Assembly (NCBI RefSeq): GCF_003334405.1
Contig: NZ_QOWM01000012.1
DNA length: 64,000 nt
Source: Escherichia coli
GTDB lineage: Bacteria; Pseudomonadota; Gammaproteobacteria; Enterobacterales; Enterobacteriaceae
Strand: one strand, 5' to 3'
Every line of letters begins with the position of its first letter. Position 1 is the first letter of the stretch. Shown here one piece after another: positions 1-33,672 of this stretch. The translations under genes were made by a program, and so were the position numbers. Below the pieces are notes generated by a model. It was not told the origin of the DNA, made no database searches, and worked only from the letters and a program-made list of their open reading frames with translations.

Positions 1-121
1 AATCGTGAAACTGGCGCATCAACTGCTGATGCAGTGCCGGAAGGCGTCGCCAGCGTTGCTTGTCGAGGGCTTCATTCATCGCCTCGACCAGTGCGAAAAG
101 TTGCCTGCGTTGTTTTTCCAT
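1..121 (-). CDS. N-terminal part of the gene following lafC in the lafB-lafC operon (candidate LafD/FliT-like export chaperone); runs off the window edge
   Basis: ATG at 121 on the minus strand reads MEKQRRQLFALVEAMNEALDKQRWRRLPALHQQLMRQFHD..., 5 bp after the lafC stop; position matches the lateral flagellar lafA-B-C-D order; assignment by position only. Confidence 0.3.
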   Translation of the reverse strand, partial: MEKQRRQLFALVEAMNEALDKQRWRRLPALHQQLMRQFHD

Positions 122-125
122 CGTC

Positions 126-518
126 TTAACCCAGCTTGCCCGAAAGCCCTTCCCAGCCTTCGCGCAGGTTGCTTAAGATCAGCATCACTTCATCGATTTT
201 CTCTGCCGATAATTCGCCGCTGGCCTCATACAATCGGTAAACGCAGTGGTCATAGAGTCGCGAAAGGTTGACCACCAGCTCACCGCCGGTTTCAAACTCC
301 AGCGAACTGGTAAGCGCATTGAGAATGTCGATGCATTTATTGATGCTCTGGGCTTTCTTCTCGAAACGCCGCCCTTCAATATGGCTTTTGGCGCGTTCCA
401 GCTCGTCCATCAGGCCAGAAAACAGCACCAGCACCAGTTCCAGAGGCGATGCCGCCGCAGTACGCGCCGCGAGATCGATCTCTTTATATTGTGAATAGCC
501 GTCCTGTACTTGGTACAT
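126..518 (-). CDS. lafC: Flagellar export chaperone FliS-like (lateral system)
   Basis: 130-aa ORF, FliS-like size and helical sequence, directly downstream of the FliD-like gene. Confidence 0.8.
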   Translation of the reverse strand: MYQVQDGYSQYKEIDLAARTAAASPLELVLVLFSGLMDELERAKSHIEGRRFEKKAQSINKCIDILNALTSSLEFETGGELVVNLSRLYDHCVYRLYEASGELSAEKIDEVMLILSNLREGWEGLSGKLG

Positions 519-540
519 CTTTAGGGATATTCCTTCTGAG

Positions 541-1857
541 TTACGCGAATGCCGCCATGCTGGCTTTCATGGTGTACACCTCGACCAGCGTGTTGGTGTA
601 CTCCTCGAGATAACGGTCGTAGTTGGCGTTATAGGTATCGGTAAGCTGATCGCCTTCGTCCTGAATTTTGCTCATCTGATCGTCAATGTTCTGCTGGCGC
701 AGGGTGATGATGCCGTTGCTGGAGTCCGTGTAGGTGTTAATCAGGTCGTCCATCTGCGCCACCATGCTGTTGTCGCCAACGAAAATAGAGGTCAGACCGT
801 CAGGATTTTTCGCCATTTCGTCGTTGAACTGGTCGGAGTCAATCTGTAAGTGGCCGTGAGAATCAAGCGTGATGCCATAGTCAACAATCGACACGCCGTT
901 GTAGTTGGCATGGGCGATGTCATCGAGCTGGTTCGCCAGTGAATTGAGTCCGGCGTCGCCTGCAAATACCCCGGCGCTGGTACTGTCATCACCATGAGTA
1001 GTCAGTGAATCAACCGTATCAATCAAGGTGTTATAGGCATCGACAAAGGTCTGTACTTTCTCCTGACTGGCGCTGGAATCTTCGCTGATGTTAAAGGTAG
1101 TGAGATCGCTGTCAGAATCGCTGACTTCGGTGAAAGTCATGGTGACGCCGGGGATCACATCATCAAATGTATTGCTGCTGTTGGTGATCTCAGGCCCTGT
1201 GGCGCTACCGAGATGAATAATCGCGTCCTGAGCGGAGGAAACATCCGTGGCAACGGGCGCGCTGGCGCTATCGTTGCTGGCATCATGCCCCGTTACGCTC
1301 ACCGAAAACGCGCTCTGCGCCCCGGTGCTATCCGAGGTGAGCATAATCGTGGTGGTGCCGTCGGTTTTTACCAGCGCAGCCGACACGCCCGGATTGTCAT
1401 CGGAGTCGTTAATCGCATTCACCAGTTCACTGGCGTCGATAAAACCGTCGCCGTCACCGTTCTGATCCGCCGCCGCCAGATCAATATCCATGGTGCTGTC
1501 GCCCATGGTCATTTCGAACGTCCCCGTCGCAGAAAAGGTGTCATCACCCATACTGAACGTGGTCTGCTGCCCCTGCGCCAGTTGTTCAACGAAAAACGAG
1601 TAGCTTCCCGCCTGCGCCTGCGAGTTAGCGGAAACGGTCGCCGAGTCATTATTGCTGGTGGCAGCGAAGGTCACCGGGCCGTCGGTATCGCTGTTTAGCG
1701 CATCCACGGCGCTCTGGAAATCGCTCAACGCCGAGCTGAGCGAGTCCAGGCCGCTGCTTTCGGCATCCAGCTCCGTTTGCTTCTCCTGCAAGTTTGCCGC
1801 CTGAGTGGCGACATCTGCATAAGCGATTTCTTGCGCAATGGTTCTTGGGTTGATCAT
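541..1857 (-). CDS. lafB: Flagellar filament cap / hook-associated protein 2 (FliD-like)
   Basis: 438-aa ORF with FliD-like conserved N and C termini and a Ser/Thr/Asp-rich centre; sits between flagellin and the FliS-like gene. Confidence 0.8.
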   Translation of the reverse strand: MINPRTIAQEIAYADVATQAANLQEKQTELDAESSGLDSLSSALSDFQSAVDALNSDTDGPVTFAATSNNDSATVSANSQAQAGSYSFFVEQLAQGQQTTFSMGDDTFSATGTFEMTMGDSTMDIDLAAADQNGDGDGFIDASELVNAINDSDDNPGVSAALVKTDGTTTIMLTSDSTGAQSAFSVSVTGHDASNDSASAPVATDVSSAQDAIIHLGSATGPEITNSSNTFDDVIPGVTMTFTEVSDSDSDLTTFNISEDSSASQEKVQTFVDAYNTLIDTVDSLTTHGDDSTSAGVFAGDAGLNSLANQLDDIAHANYNGVSIVDYGITLDSHGHLQIDSDQFNDEMAKNPDGLTSIFVGDNSMVAQMDDLINTYTDSSNGIITLRQQNIDDQMSKIQDEGDQLTDTYNANYDRYLEEYTNTLVEVYTMKASMAAFA

Positions 1858-1888
1858 TGATGACTCCGGATAACGATGTCAGGTTATT

Positions 1889-1904
1889 GGCAAAAGGCGT
1901 GCCA
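1889..1904 (-). promoter_or_regulatory. sigma54 (-24/-12) promoter upstream of lafB
   Basis: Minus strand reads TGGCACG-cctt-TTGCC (plus-strand ttggcaaaaggcgtgccaa), matching the TGGCACG-N4-TTGCW consensus, about 30 bp upstream of the lafB ATG. Confidence 0.6.
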
Positions 1905-2040
1905 ATAATTTTTATGTGAATAATCAATAGATTGAAAAATGGGCGGAAAGGCCATTTCCGGTCTGGTGGAAATACGCCTGCCGCAGAAAGAACAACACCG
2001 CCCGCAGGCGGTGTTGAGACTGATGACAAACGCAACACTG

Positions 2041-2140
2041 CCTGATGCGCTGCGCTTATCAGGCCTACAAGGTTTCTGCAATATATTGAATTTGCAATAT
2101 TTTGTAGGCCGGATAAGGCGTTCACGCCGCATCCGGCAAG
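2041..2140. repeat. REP/BIME element pair between lafB and lafA
   Basis: cctgatgcgctgcgcttatcaggcctac ... gtaggccggataaggcgttcacgccgcatccggca, the palindromic REP consensus. Confidence 0.8.
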
Positions 2141-2147
2141 TCCGCCA

Positions 2148-3062
2148 TTACTGCAGCAGGCTGGAAACCATGCTGGACATGCTGTTGGACTGTTTCAGCA
2201 TGGTGATGCCGGTCTGCATCAGCACCTGCTGTTTGGTCATATTGGACGCTTCCGTAGCGTAGTCGGTATCCATGATGTTACCGATAGCAACTTCGGTGTT
2301 GTCCTGCATACTGGTCAGGTTATTAGCCGTGTCGTTCAGACGGTTGATAGACGCACCCAGCTTGGACTGGATCTGCGAAACATCATCCATCGCGGTAGAA
2401 ATGCTGGTGATCATCTGGTTAGCCGAGCCAGACGCAGTCAGTTCAGTACCGCCAGAAACGCCTGCGGTGCCTGTGGTGTCTGCCTGATCCGCACTGAAGG
2501 AGTTGCTGATAGCAGAAAGGTCAGTCACCAGCGTGTTCAGTTGGCTAGAGATGTTCACGGTCATGGTGTCGGAAGATTCCGCGCCCACCTGGAAAGTTAC
2601 CGCGCTCTGGAACAGGCCGTCAGTACCGGTGTTGCTGGTGCCGGAAACACCGAACAGGTTGGTGCCGCCGTAGGTGGTGTTTTGCAGCATGTCAGACATC
2701 TGCTGGCCCAGTTCGTCGTATTCGTCCTGCATCGCCTGCAGATCGTCGTCGCTGTAGGTGCCGTTCGCTGCCTGAGTTGACAGGTCTTTCATACGACCCA
2801 GCACGTCAGACATTTCGTCGAACATGCTGTCGGCGGTTTGCAGCATCGCGGTGGCATCATTGATGTTGCTCAGCGCAACATCCATACCGCTGGACTGTGC
2901 TGTCAGACGGTTAGCAATTTGTTTGCCTGCGGCGTCATCGGCAGAAGAGTTAATCCGGTTACCTGTCGCCAGGCGTTCCATAGATGTAGACAGAGAAGAG
3001 CTGCTTTTGCTGATTGCATTAACGGCGGCCATTGAGGCGTTATTGGTGTTAATAGATAACAT
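2148..3062 (-). CDS. lafA: Lateral-type flagellin (short flagellin without large D2/D3 domains)
   Basis: Starts MLSINTNNASMAAVN... at ATG 3062 behind an AAGGAG RBS; conserved flagellin N and C termini (..QVLMQTGITMLKQSNSMSSMVSSLLQ); the track ORF start at 3128 is an upstream in-frame extension. Confidence 0.9.
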   Translation of the reverse strand: MLSINTNNASMAAVNAISKSSSSLSTSMERLATGNRINSSADDAAGKQIANRLTAQSSGMDVALSNINDATAMLQTADSMFDEMSDVLGRMKDLSTQAANGTYSDDDLQAMQDEYDELGQQMSDMLQNTTYGGTNLFGVSGTSNTGTDGLFQSAVTFQVGAESSDTMTVNISSQLNTLVTDLSAISNSFSADQADTTGTAGVSGGTELTASGSANQMITSISTAMDDVSQIQSKLGASINRLNDTANNLTSMQDNTEVAIGNIMDTDYATEASNMTKQQVLMQTGITMLKQSNSMSSMVSSLLQ

Positions 3063-3107
3063 GATACTGCTCCTTGGGATTAATCGTTTTCGTTTCGATA
3101 CCCTGTA

Positions 3108-3133
3108 AAAACGACACCTCGGGAGCAAACTTA
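3108..3133 (-). promoter_or_regulatory. Candidate sigma28-like (class III) promoter for lafA
   Basis: Minus strand TAAGTTT-N11-GTCGTTTT versus the FliA consensus TAAAGTTT-N11-GCCGATAA: good -35, partial -10 (4/8). Confidence 0.3.
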
Positions 3134-3496
3134 AAACCGCCGTTAAAAAAATTTCACTGCGGTTTATCTGATGCCACTTTTAGCTAAAAAAAGCAGAGTT
3201 TAAATTCAGATAAAAAGATTATTAGCAATATCTGCCACATGGCCAGGTATCAAAATATGTCTTTATCAAACGCTTGATATAGTTAAGATTACCATCAATT
3301 AACGCGTTTTCTTCTCAATGTACTGATGCCAAAATTTACATTGCGTTGCAAATAGTACACATTTGGCTATTGTACCTGTCCTGTCATTTCGTTACATTTC
3401 CACGCCATATAGTGATTAAGAATAATCCTATTACCATAAAATATTAATTATCACGCAGAAAAATCATCTTCTCAGGGACGTATAAGACTGTGCTTT

Positions 3497-4390
3497 ATGC
3501 AAAGCACTATCAGGAAACATTTATCCCTTGCTAAGGTAAACTCAACTATGAGTATTATTATCAACAACTGGCGGATGGACCCGTCGCTTAATGCCTTAAT
3601 ACATTGCGAAACGGGTGAAACACGTCGTCTCGGCGAATACCATTTTATTTTGCTGGAAACATTAGCAAAAAATGCCGATGTGGTTTTATCGCGATCTTAT
3701 TTATGTGCCGAAGTATGGAAGAACCGCATTGTCGGCGGTAACAGCCTGCCGACGGCGATACATGCATTACGCGTTGCTATCGACGATGATGGCAAACAAC
3801 AGAACATTATTAAAACCATCCCGAAAAAAGGTTACCTGTGCAATAAAGAGTATGTGTCTTTGCCGGAGTCATCGCCTGCGGAAGCGCTGATTATTACCAA
3901 CCAGGTACAGGAAACTGTGCCAGGAGAGATATCTTCGACAACCCTGCCTGTGCCTGTTAGAAAAAAACATAAAGGACTGATGGGGTTAGCGTTGACCGCG
4001 GCTGTTATATTTATTGGCTCGACCGTGGGGTATTCACACTTGAAAAGTACACCTGACGCCCCGCAACTGGTAAAAGAGTCAATTAACAGCCCAAGAATAA
4101 AAATATTTCACCTTAGTTCTGGAAAAGAAAATAATTCCGCACCGTTACTGTCACAAACCCTCGCACCAGGAAAAGACAAACTCGATAATTTATTGTCAGC
4201 GCATAATATGACAATGACAACCTATTATAAATATGTTCGTAACCGACTGGAGAGTGATATTGTTCTGCGCAACCAGTGCAACGGTAGCTGGCAATTAACC
4301 TTTAATGTGGATGAGTGGCAGAATAGCGATATTAATAGCGCGATGTATCAGAATTTAGAGAAGTTGTTAAATACTGTGCAGAAGTGCTGA
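3497..4390 (+). CDS. lafZ: ToxR/CadC-like membrane-anchored transcriptional regulator (OmpR-type winged helix, one TM segment, periplasmic domain)
   Basis: N-terminal region resembles an OmpR/PhoB-type DNA-binding domain (..TIPKKGY); hydrophobic segment GLMGLALTAAVIFIGSTVGY; divergent from lafA; the true start may be the internal Met at 3548. Confidence 0.55.
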   Translation: MQSTIRKHLSLAKVNSTMSIIINNWRMDPSLNALIHCETGETRRLGEYHFILLETLAKNADVVLSRSYLCAEVWKNRIVGGNSLPTAIHALRVAIDDDGKQQNIIKTIPKKGYLCNKEYVSLPESSPAEALIITNQVQETVPGEISSTTLPVPVRKKHKGLMGLALTAAVIFIGSTVGYSHLKSTPDAPQLVKESINSPRIKIFHLSSGKENNSAPLLSQTLAPGKDKLDNLLSAHNMTMTTYYKYVRNRLESDIVLRNQCNGSWQLTFNVDEWQNSDINSAMYQNLEKLLNTVQKC

Positions 4391-4448
4391 TGAGTGCCAA
4401 TATATGCCGGATGCGACGCTAAACGCGTCTTATCCGGCCTACCGATAA

Positions 4449-5426
4449 TTATCCCAATAAACTCCTCACCGTCTGGCTGGAAATTCGCGCCTGACCATTC
4501 ACCGCCTGCAATAACACCTGATAGTTATGATTCGCGCTATCCAACACGCCGCCGAGATTTTCCGACGCCTGCACGGCGTTTTCCGTTTGCGGGAAGCGGG
4601 ACATGCCGTCGATCAACTGGCGGGCTTTTTCCTGCTGCACCGCCATTTGCGCGCGCTGCTGATTAATGTTTTCTAACATCTGGGAAATCCCTGCCCCGCC
4701 CTGTTGCAGGCTTTGCGCTAAACGCTCGGCCTGCGACGGTTCGGCAAAGGTTTTTAGCGGCATAAACGCCGACTTATCACCATCGGTGCGCACGCTTAAG
4801 GTGCTTTCAATGTTGGGCCACTGCTTTTCGGTGGTGGAGAAGCTGATGCCGTCCGCTTGCTGATGCAGTTGCACACCCACGCGGCGCAGGGCGTTGGTCA
4901 GCCGCGTCTGATACTGCGCGGCGCTGTCATCCTCAGACAGCATCACCGCCGAAAGCTGAGTCTGCCGCCCGTCAGAGACGCTGAACATGCGCGTTCCCGG
5001 CGTGGGGTTGTGTACGAGATTCGCCAGATCCGGCGAGTGAAAAGTCACCCGCGCCTCGCCCTGCAACACTGGCTGCAACTGGCGGTCTACCGCACCGCCG
5101 GAAAGCGCGGTGCGTTTGTCCAGCATCTGCATCAGCGCCGTACTCTGCGCCTGCCCGCCCTTACGCTGGCTGTGACGATAATCGAGCAACTGCTGCTCCA
5201 GTTGCCCGAGGTAGTGATCCGCCTGCTGCAACGTGGTGAGCTGGTCGTTAAGCTGCACGCTGTAACGCTGCGGGCGAGTGGTAATCAGCGGCGAGGCCGG
5301 ATATTCACTCGCCGTCGCCGGGAGTTTTTGCCGCACCGCCTGAGTGGGCGCAACGGTTGACGACGATACCGCAGCGCTATGCGCGCTGCCGGTGGCGAGT
5401 GACGAAGAAGTAAGTCCGACCTGCAT
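4449..5426 (-). CDS. lafW: Flag-2 protein of uncertain function (LafW-like, possible hook-associated/axial protein)
   Basis: 325-aa ORF directly downstream of lfgL; Gln/Ser-rich with a flagellar axial-protein-like C terminus; naming by position in the cluster. Confidence 0.45.
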   Translation of the reverse strand: MQVGLTSSSLATGSAHSAAVSSSTVAPTQAVRQKLPATASEYPASPLITTRPQRYSVQLNDQLTTLQQADHYLGQLEQQLLDYRHSQRKGGQAQSTALMQMLDKRTALSGGAVDRQLQPVLQGEARVTFHSPDLANLVHNPTPGTRMFSVSDGRQTQLSAVMLSEDDSAAQYQTRLTNALRRVGVQLHQQADGISFSTTEKQWPNIESTLSVRTDGDKSAFMPLKTFAEPSQAERLAQSLQQGGAGISQMLENINQQRAQMAVQQEKARQLIDGMSRFPQTENAVQASENLGGVLDSANHNYQVLLQAVNGQARISSQTVRSLLG

Positions 5427-5442: not shown

Positions 5443-6372
5443 TTAGAGAACGCTGAACAAATTCAACTCACTCACTTTCGAGTAAGTCTTGAGAGTAGCT
5501 TCCATTGCCACTTCCAGTCCGGTAAAGGTGATCGACGCCGGGCCGTAATCGAGATCCTGTAAAGAACCAATCAACTCATCATTAGAGGTAGAAATATCGG
5601 TCTGCGCATCGCTCAGCATCGACATGGTGTTCTGCGTCTCGCCAAGCGACGCAATTGAGGCGTTGAGATCGTCCGAAGCGGTATCCACCACATCAACGGC
5701 GTTCTGAATATCGCTCTGCACCTGCGGATCTGCCGGGTCAACGTTGGGGGCTTGCAACTCCTGAGAGAGCGAATTGAGCGTGTTGAGCACATCTAAATTG
5801 CTACCGAAGAAATCGCTCGCCGCCACGTTGGTATCCACTTCCACGCCGTTCGAAACGGTGGTCTGGCGGTGGTCGCTGTTGCCCTGATAGCTGTAGCTAT
5901 CGGTCACGCCGTCGCCGTCATCGTCCACCGCCACAATCGGCGGCTGATCGTTGATAGTGCCGCCAAACACGTAGTGCCCGTCTTCGTCCTGATAGTTCAG
6001 CGCCGCGACCATTGATTCGGTGAGCGACTCAATATCCTGCCCGAGACTTGCGAGCGAATCGGCGGTATTGGTGCCGTTCGCTGCTTCCAGCAGGTCGTCA
6101 CGCACCGCCAGCAGGCTGTTGTTGACGCCATCGAGAATTGATTCCTGCTGGCTTAACCCCGCCGACGCGGAGTCGATATTGCTCTGATACTGCTCAATCG
6201 CCGACTGCTGGCGGTTTAACTGGGTAATGCGCGTGGCGGCGATCGGGTCATCGGACGGCTGCAAAATCTGCTTGCCGGTTGCCATCTGCTCGACCACATG
6301 CGCCAGATCGCCGGAGAGATCATTAAAACTTTGCGTCATCGAGACGTAGGTTTGTTGGGTGGTTACTCGCAT
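5443..6372 (-). CDS. lfgL: Flagellar hook-associated protein 3 (FlgL-like)
   Basis: FlgL/flagellin-like N terminus (MRVTTQQTYVSMTQSFNDL...) and position after the FlgK-like gene; the track ORF start at 6396 is an in-frame extension. Confidence 0.8.
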   Translation of the reverse strand: MRVTTQQTYVSMTQSFNDLSGDLAHVVEQMATGKQILQPSDDPIAATRITQLNRQQSAIEQYQSNIDSASAGLSQQESILDGVNNSLLAVRDDLLEAANGTNTADSLASLGQDIESLTESMVAALNYQDEDGHYVFGGTINDQPPIVAVDDDGDGVTDSYSYQGNSDHRQTTVSNGVEVDTNVAASDFFGSNLDVLNTLNSLSQELQAPNVDPADPQVQSDIQNAVDVVDTASDDLNASIASLGETQNTMSMLSDAQTDISTSNDELIGSLQDLDYGPASITFTGLEVAMEATLKTYSKVSELNLFSVL

Positions 6373-6386
6373 TTTCGCGCTCCCGC

Positions 6387-7763
6387 TTAGCTGCACATTT
6401 CCAGCACCGAATCGAAAATCTCGGCCCCGGCGGAAATGACTTTCAGATTGGCTTCATAAATTTGTTGATAGGTGATCAGGTTAACCGCCTCTTCGTCCAT
6501 GCTGACGCCGCTGACGCTGCTCTGCTGGTTTTGCGCTGCGGAATAGACATTGGACGCGGCATCGACTTCCGTCTGGTTTTGCTGGCTGTAAATGCCGATA
6601 TTGCTGATGATTGACGAGCACGCCTGCCCGACCGTCACACTGCCAAGATTGGCAATTTCCAGCGGTTCGGTGGAGATGTTGATCAGCGCCTGCAGGTTGT
6701 CGCTGTTACCGCTTTCGTCCGGCGAACTGGAAAACGCCAGCTCATCGGCGGTGATATCCGGGTTAACGGTCAGTGGGCCATCGGCATTGCTGGCGTCATA
6801 AATAAACAGCGGCTCGCCGGGGTTACCGTTGAGATCGTAGCCCTGCGCCAGCTGGTTGTTGACCGCATCGGCAAACTGCGAGGCCATGCTGTTGATGGTG
6901 TCGGTCAACGGCGTCAGCACATCGTTTTGATAATCAAACAGTGCGCCTAATGAACCTCCAGTGTCGGTGGTCATCGTCGAGGTGGTGCCAGCGAAGGTCA
7001 GCGACATGGTCGGCGTGCCGTCGGCGTTGGTTTCCAGCGCGATGGTCGAGCTTTGTTGCCCGCTCACCAGCGGCTGACCGTTTTTCAGGGTGACGTTGTA
7101 GTTGCCCTGGTCGTCGATATTGACCTGCACTTCCATCATCCCGCTCAGTTCTTCCACCATCTGATCGCGGGCGTCGTACAGCGCAGAGGCGTTATCACCG
7201 TTGGCTTCGGCCTGAGCAATTTGCTGGTTATAGCTGGCGATACCGCTGGTGAGCGTGTTGATTTGCGACACCATCGCCTGCTGCTGGCTGATGATTTCCG
7301 TGCTTTGCGAGTCGACGTAATCGAGCGTGTTATCAATACGCAACGACAGCGCCCCGGCTTCGCTGATCACCTGCTCGCGCAGGGCGGAATCATCGGGGCT
7401 GGTGGTCGCTTCGTTAAGGGCGGCGAAGAAGTTATCGAAGCCGCCGCTCAGGCTGCTGTTATCGTCGCTTAGTACCGCTTCCAGTTGGCTGAGATACCCC
7501 TGCTGGGTGCTGTAATAGCCGTAATCGCTGGCGGCATACCACACCTGATTCACCTGATACTGGTTGGAGACGCGGCGAATGCTGTCCACCTGTACGCCGT
7601 TACCGGCGCTGTTCGGCGAACCGCCGCTGGCACCGATGGTGCTGATCTCCGCCACCTGGCGAGTGTAGCCAGTGATCATGGCGTTAGCGGTGTTTTGCGC
7701 CGTGACGTTCAGCTCCACCTGCGCGGTTGATGCGCCGCTGTAGCCGATGTTAATCATGTCCAT
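6387..7763 (-). CDS. lfgK: Flagellar hook-associated protein 1 (FlgK-like)
   Basis: 458-aa ORF with FlgK-like N terminus (MDMINIGYSGASTAQVELNVTAQNTANA) and C terminus. Confidence 0.85.
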   Translation of the reverse strand: MDMINIGYSGASTAQVELNVTAQNTANAMITGYTRQVAEISTIGASGGSPNSAGNGVQVDSIRRVSNQYQVNQVWYAASDYGYYSTQQGYLSQLEAVLSDDNSSLSGGFDNFFAALNEATTSPDDSALREQVISEAGALSLRIDNTLDYVDSQSTEIISQQQAMVSQINTLTSGIASYNQQIAQAEANGDNASALYDARDQMVEELSGMMEVQVNIDDQGNYNVTLKNGQPLVSGQQSSTIALETNADGTPTMSLTFAGTTSTMTTDTGGSLGALFDYQNDVLTPLTDTINSMASQFADAVNNQLAQGYDLNGNPGEPLFIYDASNADGPLTVNPDITADELAFSSSPDESGNSDNLQALINISTEPLEIANLGSVTVGQACSSIISNIGIYSQQNQTEVDAASNVYSAAQNQQSSVSGVSMDEEAVNLITYQQIYEANLKVISAGAEIFDSVLEMCS

Positions 7764-7834
7764 GTTGGATCCTTACCGGTAAATCGTGCCGGTTAAAAGC
7801 GGCGTGAAGATGGGGATTCTTAAATTCCGTAAAC

Positions 7835-8060
<226 letters not shown>

Positions 8061-8066
8061 GGAGCC

Positions 8067-10146: not shown

Positions 10147-10189
10147 GTTCTGCCTGTTTTAAATACAGTGAGTTATGTGCTCTTGTAGG

Positions 10190-10340: not shown

Positions 10341-10349
10341 CATTTCGCC

Positions 10350-11135: not shown

Positions 11136-11164
11136 GGTGGTAAATTCCGTGTTATTTTTGGGCC

Positions 11165-11212: not shown

Positions 11213-11213
11213 G

Positions 11214-23071: not shown

Positions 23072-23074
23072 GGG

Positions 23075-25709: not shown

Positions 25710-25713
25710 AGGG

Positions 25714-26055
25714 TTAGATCGACATACTCATCAGGTCGTTAAACCCGGTGGCGATTTTATTGCGCACCTGCACCAGCGCGGAGAAAGAGAGCGACGCCTG
25801 CTGGCTGGCGATCATCGCACCTGCCAGGTCATCACTTTTGCCCGTGTCGACAGCCGTTTGCTGCTGCTCCGCCACCTGCTGGAACTGATCAACATGACCA
25901 AGCGCGCCGTACATAATGCGGTTAAACGACACGTCCGGGTCTGTGGAACTGAAGGTCATGGCGGGTAGCACCGGCGCCTGGGCGTTGGCCTGCATCCGCT
26001 GCACGTCCTGCATGATTTGCGCCTGCATGGTGCTGTTGATTGTGGTAATGCTCAT
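25714..26055 (-). CDS. lfiE: Flagellar hook-basal body protein FliE-like
   Basis: 113-aa ORF with a FliE-like C terminus; begins 14 bp after the lafK stop. Confidence 0.8.
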   Translation of the reverse strand: MSITTINSTMQAQIMQDVQRMQANAQAPVLPAMTFSSTDPDVSFNRIMYGALGHVDQFQQVAEQQQTAVDTGKSDDLAGAMIASQQASLSFSALVQVRNKIATGFNDLMSMSI

Positions 26056-26069
26056 TTTTAACTTCCGGG

Positions 26070-27056
26070 TCAGGAGAAAACTTCGATACCTTGCTTGCGC
26101 ATGGAGGCCAGTCGATAGCGCAGTGCGCGCGGGGTAATGCCTAACAGGTCGGCGATTTTGCTGCGGTTGCCCTGATATTTACGCATCAGGTCAGCGATAT
26201 ATTGATACTGGGCGCTTCGTCCGTGCTGGCCCAAATCGCTGGTTTCGGCAATGTGGACGGCGGGCTGAACAGGCCATTGCAGTTCGCTGCGGTCGGCAAC
26301 GTCCGTTTCCGGCAGGCCTAAGGCATCCGGGTAAATCACGCCGTCGCGATTTAAAATCATTCCCCGCTGAATGGCGTTCTCCAGCTGGCGCACGTTGCCG
26401 GGCCAGCGGTAATTGAGCAGCGCCCGGCGGGTAGATTCTGAAAGGGTGATATTTTTCACCAGCACCGTGGAGTACTTTTTTATAAATGACTCTGCCAGCG
26501 GAATAATATCGTTCAGACGTTCACGCAGTGGCGGCATGGTAATAGGAATAACCGCCAGACGATAATAGAGATCTTCACGAAAACGCCCGGCAGCCACTTC
26601 CTGTTCAAGGTTTTTATTGGTGCAGGCAATCAGGCGAAAATTGAGTTTAATTTGTCGGTTGCTGCCTAATCGCTCAACCTGTTGCTCCTGCAATACGCGT
26701 AATATTTTGGCCTGTAGCGCCAGCGGCATATCGCCAATTTCATCGAGTAATAAGGTGCCGTTATTCGCTAGTTCCATTTTTCCTGGCACACTGGCAATTG
26801 CGCCGGTAAATGCGCCTTTGTCGTAGCCAAATAATGTAGCTTCCAGCATGTTTTCCGGGATCGCTGCACAGTTCACGCCGATATAGGGCGCGTTATCATT
26901 TTCACCAAAGGCTACGGTGTGAATATATTTCGCCACGCATTCTTTGCCCGCGCCGGTTTCGCCCTGAATGAGCACCGGCACGTTAAATGCGGCGACACGC
27001 TTTGCCAGAGTAAAAGCGTTAATGCTGGAAGCGGCAGTTGCAATAAGTTCAGACAT
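26070..27056 (-). CDS. lafK: sigma54-dependent transcriptional activator without a receiver domain (AAA+ domain plus C-terminal HTH)
   Basis: Walker A GETGAGKE, GAFTGA motif (YDKGAFTGA), Walker B LLLDEIGDM, C-terminal HTH; the protein begins directly at the AAA+ domain (328 aa). Confidence 0.85.
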   Translation of the reverse strand: MSELIATAASSINAFTLAKRVAAFNVPVLIQGETGAGKECVAKYIHTVAFGENDNAPYIGVNCAAIPENMLEATLFGYDKGAFTGAIASVPGKMELANNGTLLLDEIGDMPLALQAKILRVLQEQQVERLGSNRQIKLNFRLIACTNKNLEQEVAAGRFREDLYYRLAVIPITMPPLRERLNDIIPLAESFIKKYSTVLVKNITLSESTRRALLNYRWPGNVRQLENAIQRGMILNRDGVIYPDALGLPETDVADRSELQWPVQPAVHIAETSDLGQHGRSAQYQYIADLMRKYQGNRSKIADLLGITPRALRYRLASMRKQGIEVFS

Positions 27057-27177
27057 AGGGTGAACGATATCAGTAGCGACAGAAAACAGGATATTGTGAA
27101 GCGTATCACCGGCGGGATTAACAAGTTCGAATTAAACGATAATAAAAATATTATTTTATGGTAAACAATGAGTTATC

Positions 27178-27275
<98 letters not shown>

Positions 27276-27442
27276 GTGTTATGACGATGCCTGATATCTA
27301 GCCCTTTAATAATTTAATTATTTTTTCATCCTATTAATAATTTGCCCCTTTCACTCCCCCTCTATTTAATACCTCACCTTGTGTCACTGCCGGATTTGCG
27401 TGCACAAAATCGCCCATACCATTACAGCAGAGAAAGTAAGCC

Positions 27443-28294
27443 ATGCTGAAGTACAGTAAAACGCCAGGCATCTTTAAATTAGAAGGTAATCGGCTCGGAC
27501 GCCCCTACCATCACCTGCCGACCCTGTTTACGGGGAATTTTGACGTGATTGATTCGCATCTGGGCAGCTACTTTCTCAAAAAGCATCGCAGCAATATCAC
27601 CTTAAAAAAGATTGGCTGCGAAATGGATATTATTAATAAAAACGCTGAACTAATGATTTCCCAGGTCGGGCATCTGGCGTTTGATATTGATCGCTCCTTG
27701 CTGTTAATGCTGCTGGGCAATTTTTATGGTCTGGAGTCGTCTCTTGAAGAGGCGAAAGCGCATAACGGCCTGCCGACCAAAACCGAAACACGATTAAAGA
27801 ACCGACTCGCGCTGGATATCTGCACGCTGATATTTAATCTGCAAACCTCCGGTATTGCGCTGAAATTAAAGCTGGACAGCAGCACGGTGATTACCCACTG
27901 GGCGTATCAATTAACCTTTACCCTTGCGGGCGATGAAGAGAGCTGTTTTCGTATTTTGCTCGACGACGCCCACACCGATTTTATTTTAAATCTGATCCGC
28001 CACAGCGAGCACAGTAAACCGCAGCAGGTGGCGAAATCCGTCAATAAACCGGCCCTGATTAAAGAGATCATCCGCTCCCTGCCGCTGACCCTGAACGTCA
28101 AAATCGCCGAGCTATCGATGAATGTCGCGGATCTCACGCAGATAAAAGCCGGGGATATTTTACCCATCTCGCTGGGAGAAACGTTCCCGGTGGCGATTGG
28201 GCAATCTGAATTATTTAGCGCCCTGATTGTGGAAGACAAAGACAAACTGTTTTTGTCGGAGCTGGCGGGCAAAAATGAGAATAGCCATGAGTAA
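27443..28294 (+). CDS. lfiM: Flagellar motor switch protein FliM-like (no N-terminal CheY-binding motif)
   Basis: 283-aa ORF ahead of the FliN-like gene with a SpoA-like C-terminal segment (GDILPISLGETFPVAIGQSELFSALIV); no LSQxEIDxLL motif at the N terminus. Confidence 0.6.
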   Translation: MLKYSKTPGIFKLEGNRLGRPYHHLPTLFTGNFDVIDSHLGSYFLKKHRSNITLKKIGCEMDIINKNAELMISQVGHLAFDIDRSLLLMLLGNFYGLESSLEEAKAHNGLPTKTETRLKNRLALDICTLIFNLQTSGIALKLKLDSSTVITHWAYQLTFTLAGDEESCFRILLDDAHTDFILNLIRHSEHSKPQQVAKSVNKPALIKEIIRSLPLTLNVKIAELSMNVADLTQIKAGDILPISLGETFPVAIGQSELFSALIVEDKDKLFLSELAGKNENSHE

Positions 28295-28658
28295 GCAAGA
28301 AGATATTTTAGCCGGGGATTTTGGCCTCACCGATGAAGTTGCGCCTGTCGCAAAATCCGCCGACGCTGAAACGCTGGTCACCCGCCTGGAAGACCGTTTT
28401 TCCGACTCGATGACGCTGCTAAAACGCATTCCGGTGACCTTAACGCTGGAAGTGTCGTCGGTGGAGATCATGTTAGCCGACCTCCTTAACATCGACGACG
28501 ACACGGTGATTGAGCTGGATAAACTCGCCGGGGAGCCGCTGGATATTAAAGTGAACAATATCCTGCTGGGCAAAGCGGAAGTGGTGGTGGTCAACGAGAA
28601 GTACGGCCTGCGCGTGCTGGAATTTAACACCCGCGATATCAACGACCTGGCACCATGA
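28287..28658 (+). CDS. lfiN: Flagellar motor switch protein FliN-like
   Basis: SpoA domain (..IELDKLAGEPLDIKVNNILLGKAEVVVVNEKYGLRVLEF); start taken at ATG 28287. Confidence 0.8.
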   Translation: MSKQEDILAGDFGLTDEVAPVAKSADAETLVTRLEDRFSDSMTLLKRIPVTLTLEVSSVEIMLADLLNIDDDTVIELDKLAGEPLDIKVNNILLGKAEVVVVNEKYGLRVLEFNTRDINDLAP

Positions 28659-29407
28659 AACGCCGCACTCAACTGACGCTGGGCCTTGGGCTGCTGGCGC
28701 TTGCGCCGCTGGCAATCGCCCAGGGCGGCGATATTGCGCTGCTTAACGTGGTCACCCACGGCAACACTCAGGAGTACAGCGTCAAAATTCAGGTACTGAT
28801 TCTGATGACCCTCGTCGGTTTGCTGCCGACGATGGCGCTGATGATGACCTGCTTTGCGCGCTTTATTATCGTGCTGTCGCTGCTGCGCCAGGCGCTAGGG
28901 CTGCAACAAACGCCGCCAAACCGCATTCTGATTGGCATTGCGCTCTCCCTCACCATGCTGGTGATGCGCCCCATCTGGCTCAATATTTACGACCACGCAG
29001 TAGTGCCGTTCGAAAACGATCAGATTACCCTGACCGATGCGTTAAGCACCGCCGCGACGCCACTCAAACGCTTTATGCTGGCGCAGACCGACAAAAAAGC
29101 GATGGCGCAAATCATGACCATCGGAGGCGCGAAGGGCAATGCCGCCGACCAGGATCTCTCTATCGTGGTGCCCGCCTATGTGTTGAGCGAGCTGAAAACC
29201 GCTTTCCAGATTGGCTTTATGATTTACATCCCGTTTCTGGTTATCGACCTGATTGTCGCAAGCGTACTGATGGCGATGGGGATGATGATGCTGTCGCCGC
29301 TGATTGTTTCGCTGCCCTTTAAGCTGATGCTGTTTGTGCTGATCGACGGCTGGTCGCTGACCATCGGCACGCTCACCACCAGCATTCGCGGGCTGGGGCT
29401 GGGCTGA
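28655..29407 (+). CDS. lfiP: Flagellar export apparatus protein FliP-like
   Basis: 250-aa multi-TM ORF with FliP-like motifs (..FQIGFMIYIPFLVIDL..). Confidence 0.9.
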   Translation: MKRRTQLTLGLGLLALAPLAIAQGGDIALLNVVTHGNTQEYSVKIQVLILMTLVGLLPTMALMMTCFARFIIVLSLLRQALGLQQTPPNRILIGIALSLTMLVMRPIWLNIYDHAVVPFENDQITLTDALSTAATPLKRFMLAQTDKKAMAQIMTIGGAKGNAADQDLSIVVPAYVLSELKTAFQIGFMIYIPFLVIDLIVASVLMAMGMMMLSPLIVSLPFKLMLFVLIDGWSLTIGTLTTSIRGLGLG

Positions 29408-29409
29408 TT

Positions 29410-29682
29410 ATGTTGACCGTAGACGTTGCCGCCGACATTGTCGCCAGCGGCATAAAAGTAGTGATTTTGCTGGTTTCGGTACTGGTGGTGCCGAGTTTGC
29501 TGGTCGGCCTGCTGGTGAGCGTGTTCCAGGCGGTAACGCAGATTAACGAACAGACCCTGAGCTTTTTGCCGAGGCTGATTGTCACGCTGGTGGTGCTGGG
29601 CGTGTGCGGCAAATGGATGATTATCCAGTTGCATGATCTCTGCATTCACCTGTTTACCCAGGCCGCCCTGCTGGTGCATTAA
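29410..29682 (+). CDS. lfiQ: Flagellar export apparatus protein FliQ-like
   Basis: 90-aa two-TM ORF, FliQ-like. Confidence 0.9.
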   Translation: MLTVDVAADIVASGIKVVILLVSVLVVPSLLVGLLVSVFQAVTQINEQTLSFLPRLIVTLVVLGVCGKWMIIQLHDLCIHLFTQAALLVH

Positions 29683-29683
29683 G

Positions 29684-30466
29684 ATGCGCACAAGCGACGT
29701 TACGCAACTGATGGATCTGGCGCTGGGGCTGTGGTTTCCCTTTGTGCGCATTATGGCGTTTCTGCGCTATGTGCCAGTGCTGGATAACAGCGCCCTGACC
29801 GTGCGCGTGCGGATTATTTTGTCGCTGGCGCTGGCAATCATCATCACGCCGTTAATTCCGCATCCCATTCCCCACGACCTGCTTTCACTCAACAGCCTGA
29901 TCCTGACGGTGGAGCAAATTTTATGGGGCATGTTATTCGGGCTGATGTTTCAGTTTTTGTTTCTGGCGCTACAGCTGGCCGGGCAAATTCTCTCGTTCAA
30001 TATGGGGATGAGCATGGCGGTGATGAACGACCCGAGCAGTGGCGCATCGACCACCGTGCTGGCGGAGCTCATCAACGTCTACGCGATCCTGCTGTTTTTT
30101 GCCATGGACGGGCATCTGCTGCTGGTGAGTGTGCTGTATAAGGGCTTTACCTACTGGCCGATTGGCAACGCGCTGCATCCGCAAACCCTGCGCACCATCG
30201 CGCTGGCCTTTAGCTGGGTGCTGGCGTCCGCATCGCTGCTGGCGCTGCCAACCACTTTTATCATGCTGATTGTGCAGGGCTGCTTTGGCCTGCTCAACCG
30301 CATTGCGCCGCCGCTGAACCTTTTTTCACTCGGTTTTCCCATCAACATGCTGGCGGGGCTGGTCTGCTTTGCCACCCTGCTCTACAACCTGCCGGATCAC
30401 TATCTGCATCTGGCGAATTTTGTGTTGCAGCAACTCGACGCGCTGAAAGGTCACTATGGCGGATAG
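29684..30466 (+). CDS. lfiR: Flagellar export apparatus protein FliR-like
   Basis: Multi-TM ORF; start taken at ATG 29684 just after the lfiQ stop. Confidence 0.85.
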   Translation: MRTSDVTQLMDLALGLWFPFVRIMAFLRYVPVLDNSALTVRVRIILSLALAIIITPLIPHPIPHDLLSLNSLILTVEQILWGMLFGLMFQFLFLALQLAGQILSFNMGMSMAVMNDPSSGASTTVLAELINVYAILLFFAMDGHLLLVSVLYKGFTYWPIGNALHPQTLRTIALAFSWVLASASLLALPTTFIMLIVQGCFGLLNRIAPPLNLFSLGFPINMLAGLVCFATLLYNLPDHYLHLANFVLQQLDALKGHYGG

Positions 30467-31595
30467 CAGCAGCGAAGAAAAAACAGAAAAACCCTCGGCG
30501 CAAAAGCTGCGTAAAGCGCGTGAAGAGGGGCAACTGCCGCGCTCGAAGGATATGGGGCTGGCGGCGAGCCTGTTTGCGGCGTTTGTGGTGATCTCCAGCA
30601 GCTTCCCGTGGTATGCCGATTTTGTGCGCGAGAGTTTTATCAGCGTGCATCAGTACGCGCAGGAGATTAATAACCCGGAGGTGATCGGCCAGTTTCTGCG
30701 CCATCACCTGTTAATACTCGGCAAGTTTATTCTCACCTTGCTGCCGATGCCCGCTGCCGCGCTACTCTCTTCGCTGGTGCCCGGCGGCTGGCTGTTTCTG
30801 CCGAAAAAAATCCTCCCGGATTTCAGCAAAATCAGCCCGTTAAAAGGCATTGGGCGGCTGTTTTCCAGTGAACATCTGGCGGAAACGGGAAAGATGACGG
30901 TGAAGTCGGTGGTGGTGCTGGTGATGCTGTGGGTAAGCCTGCGCAATAACTTTGCCGCCTTTCTCGGCCTGCAGGCGCTACCGTTCAAACTGGCGATGAA
31001 TGAGGGTTTATCGCTCTACGCCTGCGTGATGCGCAACTTTGTCATCCTGTTTATCTTCTTTGCGTTAATCGACGTGCCGCTGGCGAAAGCCCTGTTTACC
31101 AAAGGGCTGAAGATGACCAAACAGGAGCTGAAAGAAGAGTATAAAAACCAGGAAGGCAAGCCGGAAGTGAAGGCGCGCGTGCGGCGTCTGCAACGGCAGT
31201 TGGCGATGGGGCAAATTCGCAAAGTGGTGCCGAAAGCCAACGTGGTGATCACCAACCCGACCCACTACGCCGTGGCGTTGCAGTATGACTCGTCGCGCGC
31301 CGCCGCGCCGTTTGTGGTGGCGAAAGGCACCGATGAAATCGCCCTCTATATTCGCCAGGTCGCCGCTGAGAATCAGGTGGAAGTGGTCGAGTTCCCGCGA
31401 CTGGCGCGCTCGGTTTACTACACCACCCAGGTGAACCAGCAAATTCCGTTTCAGCTTTACCGGGCCATCGCCCACGTTCTGACCTACGTCCTGCAAATGA
31501 AACACTGGCGCGAGGGTGCACAGCCGCGCCCGGCCCTGAACAGACATATTTCCATTCCCAAAGAGGTGCTTAAACTGGATGGCGAAAACAACTAA
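30456..31595 (+). CDS. lfhB: Flagellar export apparatus protein FlhB-like
   Basis: 379-aa ORF with the NPTH autocleavage motif (VVITNPTHYAVAL). Confidence 0.9.
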   Translation: MADSSSEEKTEKPSAQKLRKAREEGQLPRSKDMGLAASLFAAFVVISSSFPWYADFVRESFISVHQYAQEINNPEVIGQFLRHHLLILGKFILTLLPMPAAALLSSLVPGGWLFLPKKILPDFSKISPLKGIGRLFSSEHLAETGKMTVKSVVVLVMLWVSLRNNFAAFLGLQALPFKLAMNEGLSLYACVMRNFVILFIFFALIDVPLAKALFTKGLKMTKQELKEEYKNQEGKPEVKARVRRLQRQLAMGQIRKVVPKANVVITNPTHYAVALQYDSSRAAAPFVVAKGTDEIALYIRQVAAENQVEVVEFPRLARSVYYTTQVNQQIPFQLYRAIAHVLTYVLQMKHWREGAQPRPALNRHISIPKEVLKLDGENN

Positions 31596-33672
31596 ATCGT
31601 TCCTCGCGCTGCTGCGCGGCGGCAATCTCGGCGTGCCGCTGGTGATCCTGTGTATTCTGGCGATGGTTATTTTGCCGCTGCCGCCTGCGCTGCTGGATAT
31701 TCTGTTCACCTTCAACATTGTGCTGGCGGTGATGGTGCTGCTGGTGGCGGTGTCGGCGAAACGACCGCTGGAATTCAGCCTGTTCCCGACCATTTTGCTG
31801 ATCACCACCTTAATGCGCCTGACGCTTAACGTTGCTTCTACGCGCGTGGTGCTGCTGCACGGGCATCTCGGCGCGGGCGCGGCGGGTAAGGTGATTGAGT
31901 CGTTTGGTCAGGTGGTGATCGGCGGCAACTTTGTCGTCGGCTTCGTGGTGTTTATCATCCTGATGATCATCAACTTTATTGTCGTCACCAAAGGGGCCGA
32001 GCGTATTTCCGAGGTTTCTGCCCGCTTTACCTTAGACGCGATGCCCGGCAAACAGATGGCGATTGACGCCGATCTTAACGCCGGATTGATCAACCAGGCG
32101 CAGGCGCAAACCCGGCGTAAAGATGTTGCCAGCGAGGCCGATTTCTACGGCGCGATGGACGGGGCATCGAAGTTTGTGCGCGGGGACGCCATCGCCGGGA
32201 TGATGATTCTGGCGATCAACCTGATCGGCGGCGTCTGTATCGGGATCTTCAAATACAACCTGAGCGCCGATGCTGCCTTCCAGCAGTATGTGCTGATGAC
32301 CATCGGCGACGGCCTGGTGGCGCAGATCCCTTCCCTGCTGCTCTCCACCGCGGCGGCGATTATCGTCACCCGCGTCAGCGACAACGGCGATATCGCCCAT
32401 GACGTGCGTAACCAGCTGCTGGCAAGCCCGTCGGTGCTCTACACCGCCACCGGGATTATGTTCGTGCTGGCGGTGGTACCGGGAATGCCGCACCTGCCGT
32501 TTTTGCTGTTCAGCGCCCTGCTTGGTTTTACCGGCTGGCGGATGAGCAAACAGCCGCTGGCGGCGGAGGCGGAAGAGAAAAGCCTCGAAACGCTGACCCG
32601 CACCATCACCGAAACCAGCGAGCAGCAGGTCAGTTGGGAAACCATTCCGCTGATCGAGCCTATCAGTTTAAGCCTCGGTTACAAACTGGTGGCGCTGGTG
32701 GACAAAGCACAGGGTAACCCGCTCACCCAGCGGATTCGCGGCGTGCGGCAGGTGATTTCTGACGGCAACGGCGTGCTGCTGCCGGAGATCCGCATTCGGG
32801 AAAACTTCCGCCTTAAGCCCAGTCAGTACGCCATTTTCATCAACGGCATAAAGGCTGATGAAGCGGATATTCCGGCGGATAAACTGATGGCCCTGCCCTC
32901 CAGCGAAACCTACGGCGAGATTGACGGCGTGCAGGGGAACGACCCGGCGTACGGGATGCCGGTCACCTGGATCCAGGCGGCGCAGAAAGCGAAGGCGCTG
33001 AATATGGGGTATCAGGTGATCGACAGCGCCAGCGTGATCGCTACCCATGTAAATAAGATTGTGCGCAGCTATATTCCTGATTTGTTTAACTATGATGATA
33101 TTACGCAGTTGCATAACCGTTTATCGTCGACGGCACCGCGTCTGGCGGAAGATTTGAGCGCGGCGCTCAATTACAGCCAGTTGCTGAAAGTGTACCGGGC
33201 GCTGCTGACCGAAGGCGTTTCCCTGCGCGATATCGTCACCATCGCCACCGTGCTGGTCGCCAGTAGCACGGTGACGAAAGATCATATTCTGCTGGCGGCC
33301 GATGTGCGCCTGGCATTGCGGCGCAGCATTACCCATCCGTTCGTTCGCAAGCAGGAGCTGACGGTGTATACGCTGAATAATGAGCTGGAAAATCTGCTGA
33401 CCAACGTGGTGAATCAGGCGCAACAGGGCGGGAAAGTGATGCTCGACAGCGTGCCGGTCGATCCGAATATGCTCAACCAGTTCCAGAGTACGATGCCACA
33501 GGTGAAAGAGCAGATGAAAGCGGCGGGGAAAGACCCGGTGCTGCTGGTGCCACCGCAGCTGCGCCCTTTGCTGGCGCGTTATGCAAGGTTGTTTGCGCCG
33601 GGGCTGCATGTGCTGTCGTATAACGAAGTGCCGGATGAGCTGGAGTTGAAGATTATGGGGGCGTTGATGTAA
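31579..33672 (+). CDS. lfhA: Flagellar export apparatus protein FlhA-like (full length)
   Basis: 697-aa ORF with the FlhA TM region and cytoplasmic domain; no frameshift. Confidence 0.9.
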   Translation: MAKTTKSFLALLRGGNLGVPLVILCILAMVILPLPPALLDILFTFNIVLAVMVLLVAVSAKRPLEFSLFPTILLITTLMRLTLNVASTRVVLLHGHLGAGAAGKVIESFGQVVIGGNFVVGFVVFIILMIINFIVVTKGAERISEVSARFTLDAMPGKQMAIDADLNAGLINQAQAQTRRKDVASEADFYGAMDGASKFVRGDAIAGMMILAINLIGGVCIGIFKYNLSADAAFQQYVLMTIGDGLVAQIPSLLLSTAAAIIVTRVSDNGDIAHDVRNQLLASPSVLYTATGIMFVLAVVPGMPHLPFLLFSALLGFTGWRMSKQPLAAEAEEKSLETLTRTITETSEQQVSWETIPLIEPISLSLGYKLVALVDKAQGNPLTQRIRGVRQVISDGNGVLLPEIRIRENFRLKPSQYAIFINGIKADEADIPADKLMALPSSETYGEIDGVQGNDPAYGMPVTWIQAAQKAKALNMGYQVIDSASVIATHVNKIVRSYIPDLFNYDDITQLHNRLSSTAPRLAEDLSAALNYSQLLKVYRALLTEGVSLRDIVTIATVLVASSTVTKDHILLAADVRLALRRSITHPFVRKQELTVYTLNNELENLLTNVVNQAQQGGKVMLDSVPVDPNMLNQFQSTMPQVKEQMKAAGKDPVLLVPPQLRPLLARYARLFAPGLHVLSYNEVPDELELKIMGALM

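Follow-up and report, generated by a model that had tools for sequence, protein, structure and literature searches.

Known Flag-2 systems and the present locus

The lateral-type flagellar system Flag-2 was reportedly described in enteroaggregative Escherichia coli 042 by Ren et al. in 2005, and a frameshift in lfgC of that strain is said to have been held to have killed the system. Intact Flag-2 loci with an undamaged lfgC are on record for strains W and Crooks (PMC3032704), for the ST131 strain EC958 (PMC4637896) and for porcine extraintestinal pathogenic E. coli PCN033 (PMC4578781), and both the distribution of Flag-2 (about 15-20% of E. coli) and its architecture have already been catalogued. 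Here, a stretch of 64,000 nucleotides of E. coli DNA (contig NZ_QOWM01000012.1 of RefSeq assembly GCF_003334405.1; referred to as the window) was analysed. Its positions 1-33672 very probably constitute a chromosomal Flag-2 gene cluster in which all visible genes are undamaged. The locus corresponds to the allele of which K-12 retains the two end fragments, here without the deletion. As a textbook example of a known family, it is distinguished only by the absence of the lesions present in 042, in K-12 and in its closest relative, strain FORC_081.

With 042 (NC_017626.1), the locus shares the chromosomal site, the gene order, the orientation and the same three sigma54 sites, and 35 of the 36 proteins encoded wholly within it are 90-100% identical, mostly 96-100%. 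The two alleles differ in lfgC, which is frameshifted in 042 and intact in the window, in a toxin-antitoxin pair of RelE/ParE and helix-turn-helix (HTH) type, which stands between lafW and lafZ in 042 and is missing from the window, in the copy numbers of bacterial interspersed mosaic elements (BIMEs), and in the lengths of the GT2 glycosyltransferase, the TagD-like cytidylyltransferase, LfgD and LafK, by 2-9 residues. Strains W, Crooks, EC958 and PCN033 were compared by description only: W and Crooks lack the toxin-antitoxin pair, as does the window, W carries a Mu prophage inside its Flag-2 locus (PMC3032704), and the LafK of PCN033 has, as here, a full sigma54 activation domain (PMC4578781). 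The present allele belongs to a K-12-like lineage, its flanks being 99.9-100% identical to those of MG1655, and the lfhA (fhiA) and lafU (mbhA) pseudogenes of MG1655 represent the two ends of this allele with 99.9-100% identity.

Experimentally active relatives are the lateral systems of Vibrio parahaemolyticus, Aeromonas hydrophila and Plesiomonas shigelloides, and the Flag-2 system of Yersinia enterocolitica. In comparison with the literature, the locus resembles them in its predicted LafK/sigma54 and LafS/sigma28 hierarchy, its short lateral flagellin, its organization as a single contiguous cluster, the lack of chemotaxis genes and a single-domain FlgJ. MotY is essential for the lateral flagella of Vibrio, and Maf-5 for those of Aeromonas. 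In contrast to these relatives, neither motY nor a maf-5 homologue is annotated in this allele, and FliO is likewise missing from its annotated Flag-2 genes; the absence of motY and maf-5 has also been noted for W and Crooks (PMC3032704) and for EC958 (PMC4637896), and the enterobacterial version of the system may not necessarily require either protein. Further differences are the presence of LafW and LafZ, of which flag-1 has no orthologues (PMC6993521), and the lack of an N-terminal receiver-like domain in LafK.

Identity and layout of the cluster

Over its first 40 kb, the window corresponds to E. coli chromosomal sequence. The E. coli collection contained no record identical to the window; the closest is that of FORC_081 (NZ_CP029057.1, from 2409214), which differs from the window over the first 37 kb by 11 single-base differences and no insertion or deletion. 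The RefSeq annotation of FORC_081 assigns the segment equivalent to window positions 1-33672 to the lateral-type cluster Flag-2, with 42 annotated Flag-2 genes for the whole allele. Together with the NCBIfam profiles and the comparison to 042, this annotation bears out the preliminary description, in which the segment had been identified as Flag-2.

On the right, the lfhA stop at 33672 is followed by rayT (yafM; 33896-34393, minus strand), a conserved right-hand flank that is recognized by NF047646 with 179 bits and annotated as such in FORC_081 and K-12. Beyond rayT follow yafL, dinJ-yafQ, dpaA, yafJ, lpcA and fadE, which is the K-12 neighbourhood in reverse. The left junction, lafU-dinB, lies off the window and was seen in FORC_081, in 042 and in four other carriers. 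The cluster is thereby located between rayT/yafM-yafL and dinB, the position that marks membership in enterobacterial Flag-2, and the K-12 scar maps to both of its ends.

All 14 genes of Flag-2 cluster 1 (lfhAB-lfiRQPNM-lafK-lfiEFGHIJ) are present, in order and uninterrupted, at 20594-33672. Cluster 2 is likewise complete and uninterrupted with its 14 genes lfgNMABCDEFGHIJKL at 5443-16398, and the members of cluster 3 that fall inside the window, lafW, lafZ, lafA, lafB and lafC, are present and uninterrupted at 126-5426. Coding sequence accounts for 92% of the region. Eight gene pairs overlap by 1-23 nt, and such start/stop overlaps suggest translational coupling in operons. A clear Shine-Dalgarno sequence was found at 21 of the 36 gene starts, and none for the GT2 glycosyltransferase gene.

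Intactness of the reading frames

All 36 genes located wholly inside 1-33672 translate without an internal stop. With lfgC left out of the length comparison, the 042 copy being frameshifted, 31 of the 35 comparable genes have the same length as their 042 orthologues, and the remaining four (lfgD, lafK, glycosyltransferase and cytidylyltransferase) deviate by the 2-9 residues given above. The canonical flagellar genes cover their NCBIfam profiles nearly end to end and mostly score above the curated cut-off of at least one model. Stops and frameshifts were sought by translation and by comparison with the 042 orthologues, and none was found in the window genes, in agreement with the earlier claim that every in-window gene is full-length and free of visible lesions. 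The same holds for lfgC and lfhA, which had been singled out as intact: lfgC is a clean open reading frame of 143 codons (FlgC profile positions 3-136/137, 130 bits), and LfhA matches the FlhA profile over positions 3-677/678 with 775 bits.

Candidate lesions were followed up individually and dismissed. An internal stop in lfiI of FORC_081 raised the question of a hidden lesion at the same place; the window differs at this base (22236) and reads CAG (Gln45), the stop being private to FORC_081, and lfiI is intact with 445 codons (FliI profile positions 2-433/434, 772 bits). Most other carriers are 118 bp longer than the window over its first 25 kb, as might result from an in-frame deletion; the difference corresponds to one BIME unit in the lfgK-lfgJ spacer, outside the genes. 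LfgB, with 111 residues, matches the 148-position FlgB profile in two pieces, as would a protein with a deletion; it has 111 residues in every allele examined.

At the left edge, lafD is cut, with only its first 40 codons inside the window (1-121, minus strand). The corresponding coding sequence in the Prokaryotic Genome Annotation Pipeline (PGAP) annotation of FORC_081 (9810-10121 of the left-flank extract L001, equivalent to window -190 to 121) is identical in this part. The off-window products are a FliK-like protein (lafE), FliL (lafF), sigma28 (lafS), MotA (lafT) and a MotB-like protein (lafU). In FORC_081, lafD, lafE, lafF, lafS, lafT and lafU follow directly, are annotated as intact with protein accessions common to other strains, and are succeeded by dinB. 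The same arrangement from lafD to lafU and dinB was found in all five other left flanks that were read, namely those of 042 and of four further carriers taken at regular intervals from the similarity ranking. An expected position of lafS, lafT and lafU just past the left edge of the window fits the flanks of FORC_081 and of these five carriers.

Regulatory elements

LafK (328 residues) carries a sigma54 activation domain (Sigma54_activat, PF00158) from residue 6, with a Walker A motif (GETGAGK) at residue 32 and the GAFTGA motif at residue 81. It also has an AAA lid and, at the C-terminus, an HTH of Fis type (HTH_8). The domain search returned no receiver or other sensory domain for LafK; the activity of the protein would therefore depend on how strongly it is expressed or on a partner.

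Perfect sigma54 promoter cores are located on the minus strand at 1890-1904 (TGGCACGCCTTTTGC), 33 nt upstream of the lafB start, and at 14817-14831 (TGGCACGGCGATTGC), 38 nt upstream of the lfgB start. A near-perfect core with one mismatch (CGGCAC-N5-TTGC) is located on the plus strand at 16476-16490 (CGGCACGCTTATTGC), 36 nt upstream of lafV. The strict pattern TGGCAC-N5-TTGC has three matches in 64 kb, against about 0.1 expected according to our base-counting estimate, and two of them are those on the correct strand before lafB and lfgB; the third (57531-57545, minus strand) lies inside the yafS coding region and was taken as a chance match. The GG/GC cores of the lfgB, lafB and lafV sites are kept in six other alleles while spacer and flanking bases vary, and the lafV site is invariant in five other alleles. 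For PCN033, the sites before lfgB and lafB have already been reported (PMC4578781). The activator domains of LafK with their GAFTGA motif and the conserved sites before lfgB, lafB and lafV support the sigma54/LafK control that had been proposed in the preliminary description.

Upstream of lafA, a candidate sigma28 (LafS)-type promoter, TTAAGTTT-N11-GTCGTTTT, is located at 3108-3134 on the minus strand and partially matches the E. coli FliA consensus. In six alleles, both blocks stay the same and the spacer between them varies, and we regard the motif as a candidate LafS promoter of lafA. A scan with the FliA consensus (TAAAG-N15-GCCGATAA, up to three mismatches), in which the spacing was one base too long, gave matches at chance level, none of them in the expected gaps. 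A terminator-like hairpin with a T-rich tail follows lafA upstream of the lafB promoter (1993-2016, minus strand; consensus match only). LafZ, as a ToxR-like membrane regulator, would be a plausible input to the cascade.

Predicted apparatus and control circuit

The cluster would encode a complete second flagellum. LfhA/B and LfiP/Q/R would form its export gate, LfiH/I/J the export ATPase complex, LfiF/G/M/N the MS ring and switch, and LfgB-J the rod, rings and hook, with LfgK/L and LafB as junction and cap proteins and LafA as the flagellin, served by the chaperone LafC. A flagellin-modification module would consist of the methylase LafV, the GT2/TagB-like transferase and the TagD-like cytidylyltransferase, and predicts a methylated flagellin, probably with a glycerophosphate-containing glycan. 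LafK, a receiver-less sigma54 enhancer-binding protein, would activate the sigma54 promoters of lfgB-L/lafW, lafB-U and lafV-GT2, of which the lafB operon would bring in lafS (sigma28), off the window. Upon completion of the hook, the anti-sigma factor LfgM would be exported and LafS would switch on lafA, and the stator LafT/LafU, likewise encoded off the window, would drive rotation.

The K-12 deletion and distribution among E. coli

Between rayT and dinB, MG1655 retains no more than two adjoining pseudogenes, of lfhA (1713 bp) and of lafU (756 bp), which are the two remnants that had been named for this site in the preliminary description. Alignment of K-12 to the FORC_081 left flank and the window yielded two blocks, with 99.93% and 100% identity, which meet at lafU (L001 6505-6507) and lfhA (window about 31969-31972) across a 3-bp ATC microhomology. 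The loss amounts to approximately 35.5 kb, from about codon 52 of lafU to about codon 131 of lfhA, and of the part of the cluster contained in the window K-12 keeps only about 31972 to 33672. With its K-12 flanks at 99.93-100% identity to this allele, the window therefore shows the pre-deletion state of the K-12 lineage, and what K-12 lost is about 35.5 kb of essentially this allele.

Flag-2 carriers make up about 15% of complete E. coli genomes: at least 80% of window positions 1-25000 is present in 826 of 5426 such genomes, and at least 80% of 25001-40000 in 845 of 5426. A further several per cent of the genomes hold only part of the locus, which corresponds to roughly one third of those with any Flag-2 DNA, as judged from an evenly spaced sample. 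Three of the four sampled carriers are annotated with every Flag-2 gene intact, and the fourth has a frameshift in lafT. According to De Maayer et al., 78% of flag-2-positive Enterobacterales possess the complete core of 39 genes (PMC6993521). An intact Flag-2 locus in E. coli is already known and common among carriers.

Selection, recent change and function

For the 31 genes of equal length, comparison of the window with 042 gave a synonymous divergence (dS) of 0.18, a nonsynonymous divergence (dN) of 0.009 and a dN/dS of 0.05. The highest ratios were obtained for lfgM, lafV and lafZ (0.19-0.23), the lowest for structural and export genes. A dN/dS of 0.05 at a dS of 0.18 therefore indicates that strong purifying selection has acted on the Flag-2 proteins over most of the period since the two alleles diverged. 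The analysis establishes gene content, intactness, promoter motifs and purifying selection for this locus. A capacity to build a flagellum is an inference from the intact reading frames, and expression, assembly and motility would be expected by analogy with homologous lateral systems.

Several observations weigh against a functional second flagellum. Eight of the 11 single-nucleotide polymorphisms (SNPs) between the window and FORC_081 (positions 4167, 7310, 8558, 10792, 16980, 18187, 18272, 19560, 20840, 22236 and 26868) are nonsynonymous, including the lfiI nonsense change of FORC_081 (Q45*, base 22236), compared with about 8.4 expected under neutrality and about 1.5 at a dN/dS of 0.05. Five SNPs occur in the window alone, and four of these change a residue (LfgG T115I, LafV A152V, GT2 H213Q and G643S). 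No recognisable Shine-Dalgarno sequence precedes lafK, and the motif scan found no sigma54 site upstream of lfiM or lafK; a sigma70 scan of the lfiM/lafK gap gave chance-level matches. In the NCBIfam profile search, LfgJ has no muramidase domain. Six genes of this strain, i.e. most of lafD together with lafE, lafF, lafS, lafT and lafU, lie off the window, and lafT is the gene that is frameshifted in one of the four sampled carriers. In EC958, whose locus is intact and which was the subject of the one consulted study that put Flag-2 specifically to the test in E. coli, LafA was undetectable at 28 and 37 °C and deletion of lafA had no effect on motility, while a fliC mutant was non-motile (PMC4637896); the swarming of W and Crooks could not be ascribed to Flag-2 (PMC3032704); and a literature search found no later paper showing Flag-2 function in E. 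coli.

One rival reading is well possible, if short of probable: the locus may be intact on paper but cryptic, transcriptionally silent in the K-12-like lineage and drifting to loss, building nothing and merely not yet struck by a disabling mutation. The failure to detect LafA from the intact EC958 locus (PMC4637896) agrees with it, as do the knockouts in the closest relatives (lfiI Q45* in FORC_081 and the 35.5-kb deletion in K-12), the SNP count near its neutral expectation and the proportion of genomes that hold only part of the locus. Silencing by H-NS would also fit the AT-rich composition (GC 0.47-0.49) of the regulatory gaps at 2-4 kb and 26-28 kb. The cryptic reading has to be set against the dN/dS of 0.05, which reflects strong constraint over most of the history of the allele, against the conservation of promoter cores next to varying spacers, and against the fully intact state of three of four spread-out carriers. 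Slightly deleterious changes are always over-represented in recent polymorphism; the nonsynonymous excess among the SNPs, which rests on the small number of 11, is expected even under selection. Recent change at the locus looks unconstrained and, with the K-12 deletion on a near-identical background, fits episodic relaxation. Strong long-term constraint combined with repeated recent inactivation suggests, as a modest population-genetic pointer, a system that certain niches favour and others make dispensable.

The four residue changes found in the window alone, one of which (LfgG T115I) affects a rod protein, also bear on the idea that the apparatus is non-functional in this strain specifically, through a damaging missense change in the window or through a frameshift or stop in lafD-lafU. 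The six genes not visible in the window and the lafT frameshift found among the sampled carriers speak in the same direction. We consider such a hidden lesion unlikely: the lafD-lafU genes of FORC_081 are annotated as intact and their protein accessions are common to other strains, and the changes inside the window are single substitutions, none of which falls in a catalytic motif that was checked, the motifs of LafK and LfiI being unaffected.

For Flag-1-bearing strains, De Maayer and colleagues speculated that the apparatus serves mainly as a protein export or adhesion device and not for locomotion, a suggestion based on the cargo genes that other taxa carry in their variable regions (PMC6993521). 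The translation of LfiM is compatible with this, as it lacks the N-terminal CheY-binding peptide (LSQxEIDALL type) of a chemotaxis-controlled FliM. In the window, however, there is no effector-like cargo: variable region 1 (VR1) contains flagellin-modification genes only and VR2 is empty. Moreover, the full filament set of flagellin LafA, cap and junction proteins is conserved, in related genomes along with the stator genes, and corresponds to the needs of a rotating propeller. A primary role in export or adhesion appears highly improbable here.

That Flag-2 is in this strain a working, conditionally expressed second motility organelle, switched via LafZ and LafK by an untried cue, is put forward tentatively and as a rather doubtful prospect; low temperature, viscous medium or surface contact may be such cues. 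If this reading of a working organelle were true, the strain or close relatives such as Z142-1 would represent a natural 'pre-deletion K-12' for a first demonstration of Flag-2 function in E. coli. The finding alone matters little. For asking whether E. coli uses Flag-2, and for what, the allele is a convenient K-12-like substrate, free of visible lesions, with conserved regulatory motifs and with flanks that agree with K-12 at 99.9-100% identity.

Gene features

Starting from the left edge, lafC (126-518, minus strand) encodes a FliS-type flagellin export chaperone of 130 residues that matches TIGR00208 with 79.2 bits (cut-off 53.75) and is 100% identical to that of 042. The FliD filament cap LafB (541-1857, minus strand; 438 residues) is matched by FliD profiles over residues 22-432 and has the same length as in 042, with 97.9% identity. 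The lateral flagellin LafA (2148-3062, minus strand; 304 residues) matches NF033376 (lat_flg_LafA_1) over positions 1-304/304 with 667.8 bits (cut-off 440) and is 99.7% identical to that of 042. On the opposite strand, lafZ (3548-4390, plus strand) encodes a ToxR/CadC-like membrane-anchored winged-helix regulator of 280 residues, with a weak N-terminal match of CadC/OmpR type and 95.7% identity to 042; its translation contains one hydrophobic segment at about residues 152-171, with the C-terminal part beyond. The Flag-2-specific LafW (4449-5426, minus strand; 325 residues) is a putative hook-associated protein of the same length as in 042, with 96.6% identity, and its name was taken from PMC6993521.

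The hook-filament junction proteins are encoded by lfgL (5443-6372, minus strand; TIGR02550, 196 bits) and lfgK (6387-7763, minus strand; TIGR02492, 347 bits, positions 2-437/437). They are followed by lfgJ, I, H, G, F, E, D, C and B (8067-14779, minus strand) for rod, L and P rings, hook and hook cap, the profiles of which are covered over their full length; the FlgE profile is matched with 534 bits over positions 1-402/402, and lfgJ encodes a rod-binding-only FlgJ of 99 residues. The P-ring chaperone lfgA, the anti-sigma28 factor lfgM and the chaperone lfgN are located at 14861-16398 (plus strand), with matches to TIGR03170 and TIGR03824 above their cut-offs and an lfgN of the same length as in 042. 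LafW and LfgN had no match in the NCBIfam profile search.

VR1 (16526-20591, both strands) was assigned to flagellin modification from profile matches and from its correspondence in content to VR1 in PMC6993521, where this set of modification genes is the commonest VR1 type catalogued by De Maayer et al. It comprises lafV (16526-17455, plus strand), encoding a FliB-like lysine N-methylase (NF038110, a weak match with 42.6 bits, below the cut-off of 85); a GT2 glycosyltransferase gene (17634-20078, plus strand; 814 residues, PF00535) with a weakly matching C-terminal TagB/F-like part of CDP-glycerol glycerophosphotransferase-like type (PF04464); and a TagD-like cytidylyltransferase gene (20196-20591, minus strand), for which the match to TIGR01518 is below the cut-off but spans the profile. 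According to the profile search, lafK-lfiEFGHIJ (20594-27056, minus strand) encode the sigma54 activator, FliE, the MS ring, FliG and the FliH/I/J export ATPase complex, and lfiMNPQR-lfhBA (27443-33672, plus strand) the switch proteins and the export gate; LfiM is matched over its C-terminal part only.

Repeats and neighbouring regions

Repetitive extragenic palindromic (REP) sequences or BIMEs occupy nine spacers in the flagellar cluster or at its edge, some of them inside operons: 1858-2147, 4391-4448, 7764-8066, 10147-10349, 11136-11213, 13154-13296, 20079-20195, 27057-27442 and 33673-33895. The BIME/REP array between lfgK and lfgJ (7764-8066) is one 118-bp unit shorter than in most carriers. 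REP-core matches number 17 in the first 33.9 kb, compared with one in 38-64 kb, and Rfam naRNA4 matches were obtained at 7900-7977, 27184-27260 and 33750-33827. The gene that directly adjoins lfhA, rayT, is a REP-associated transposase gene. The spacer between lafV and the glycosyltransferase gene (17456-17633) contains G+C-rich inverted repeats of the type CCCTCTCCC...GGGAGAGGG, which presumably resemble E. coli boxC elements; in strain NIST0056 this spacer is shorter (114 bp).

The lafW-lafZ spacer of the window holds a single REP and no toxin-antitoxin pair, whereas alleles of the 042 type carry a RelE/ParE toxin and an HTH antitoxin at this place (10887-11537 in the 042 extract L004; 14362-15012 in the 118UI extract L011). 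Elsewhere among the carriers, HicAB stands in for rayT next to lfhA (extracts L008 and L009), or VR1 contains a fic gene (extract L010). Both the edges of the locus and its variable regions are therefore hot spots for insertion.

Further to the right, a decayed type VI secretion island (42652-54400) is located beside the aspV tRNA gene (55643-55716). It contains a transposase gene of ISAs1 (42652-43788), a D1-D4 fragment of a group II intron (43902-44022), a C-terminal Rhs fragment, a truncated tssH, vasI, and remnants of tssA and tssM, followed by VasL, hcp and ykfM. Relative to strain MARGA_4, a further 2.69-kb deletion at about 49150 has removed the 5' part of tssM. The corresponding island of FORC_081 differs in carrying an IS1 element and a larger Rhs piece.

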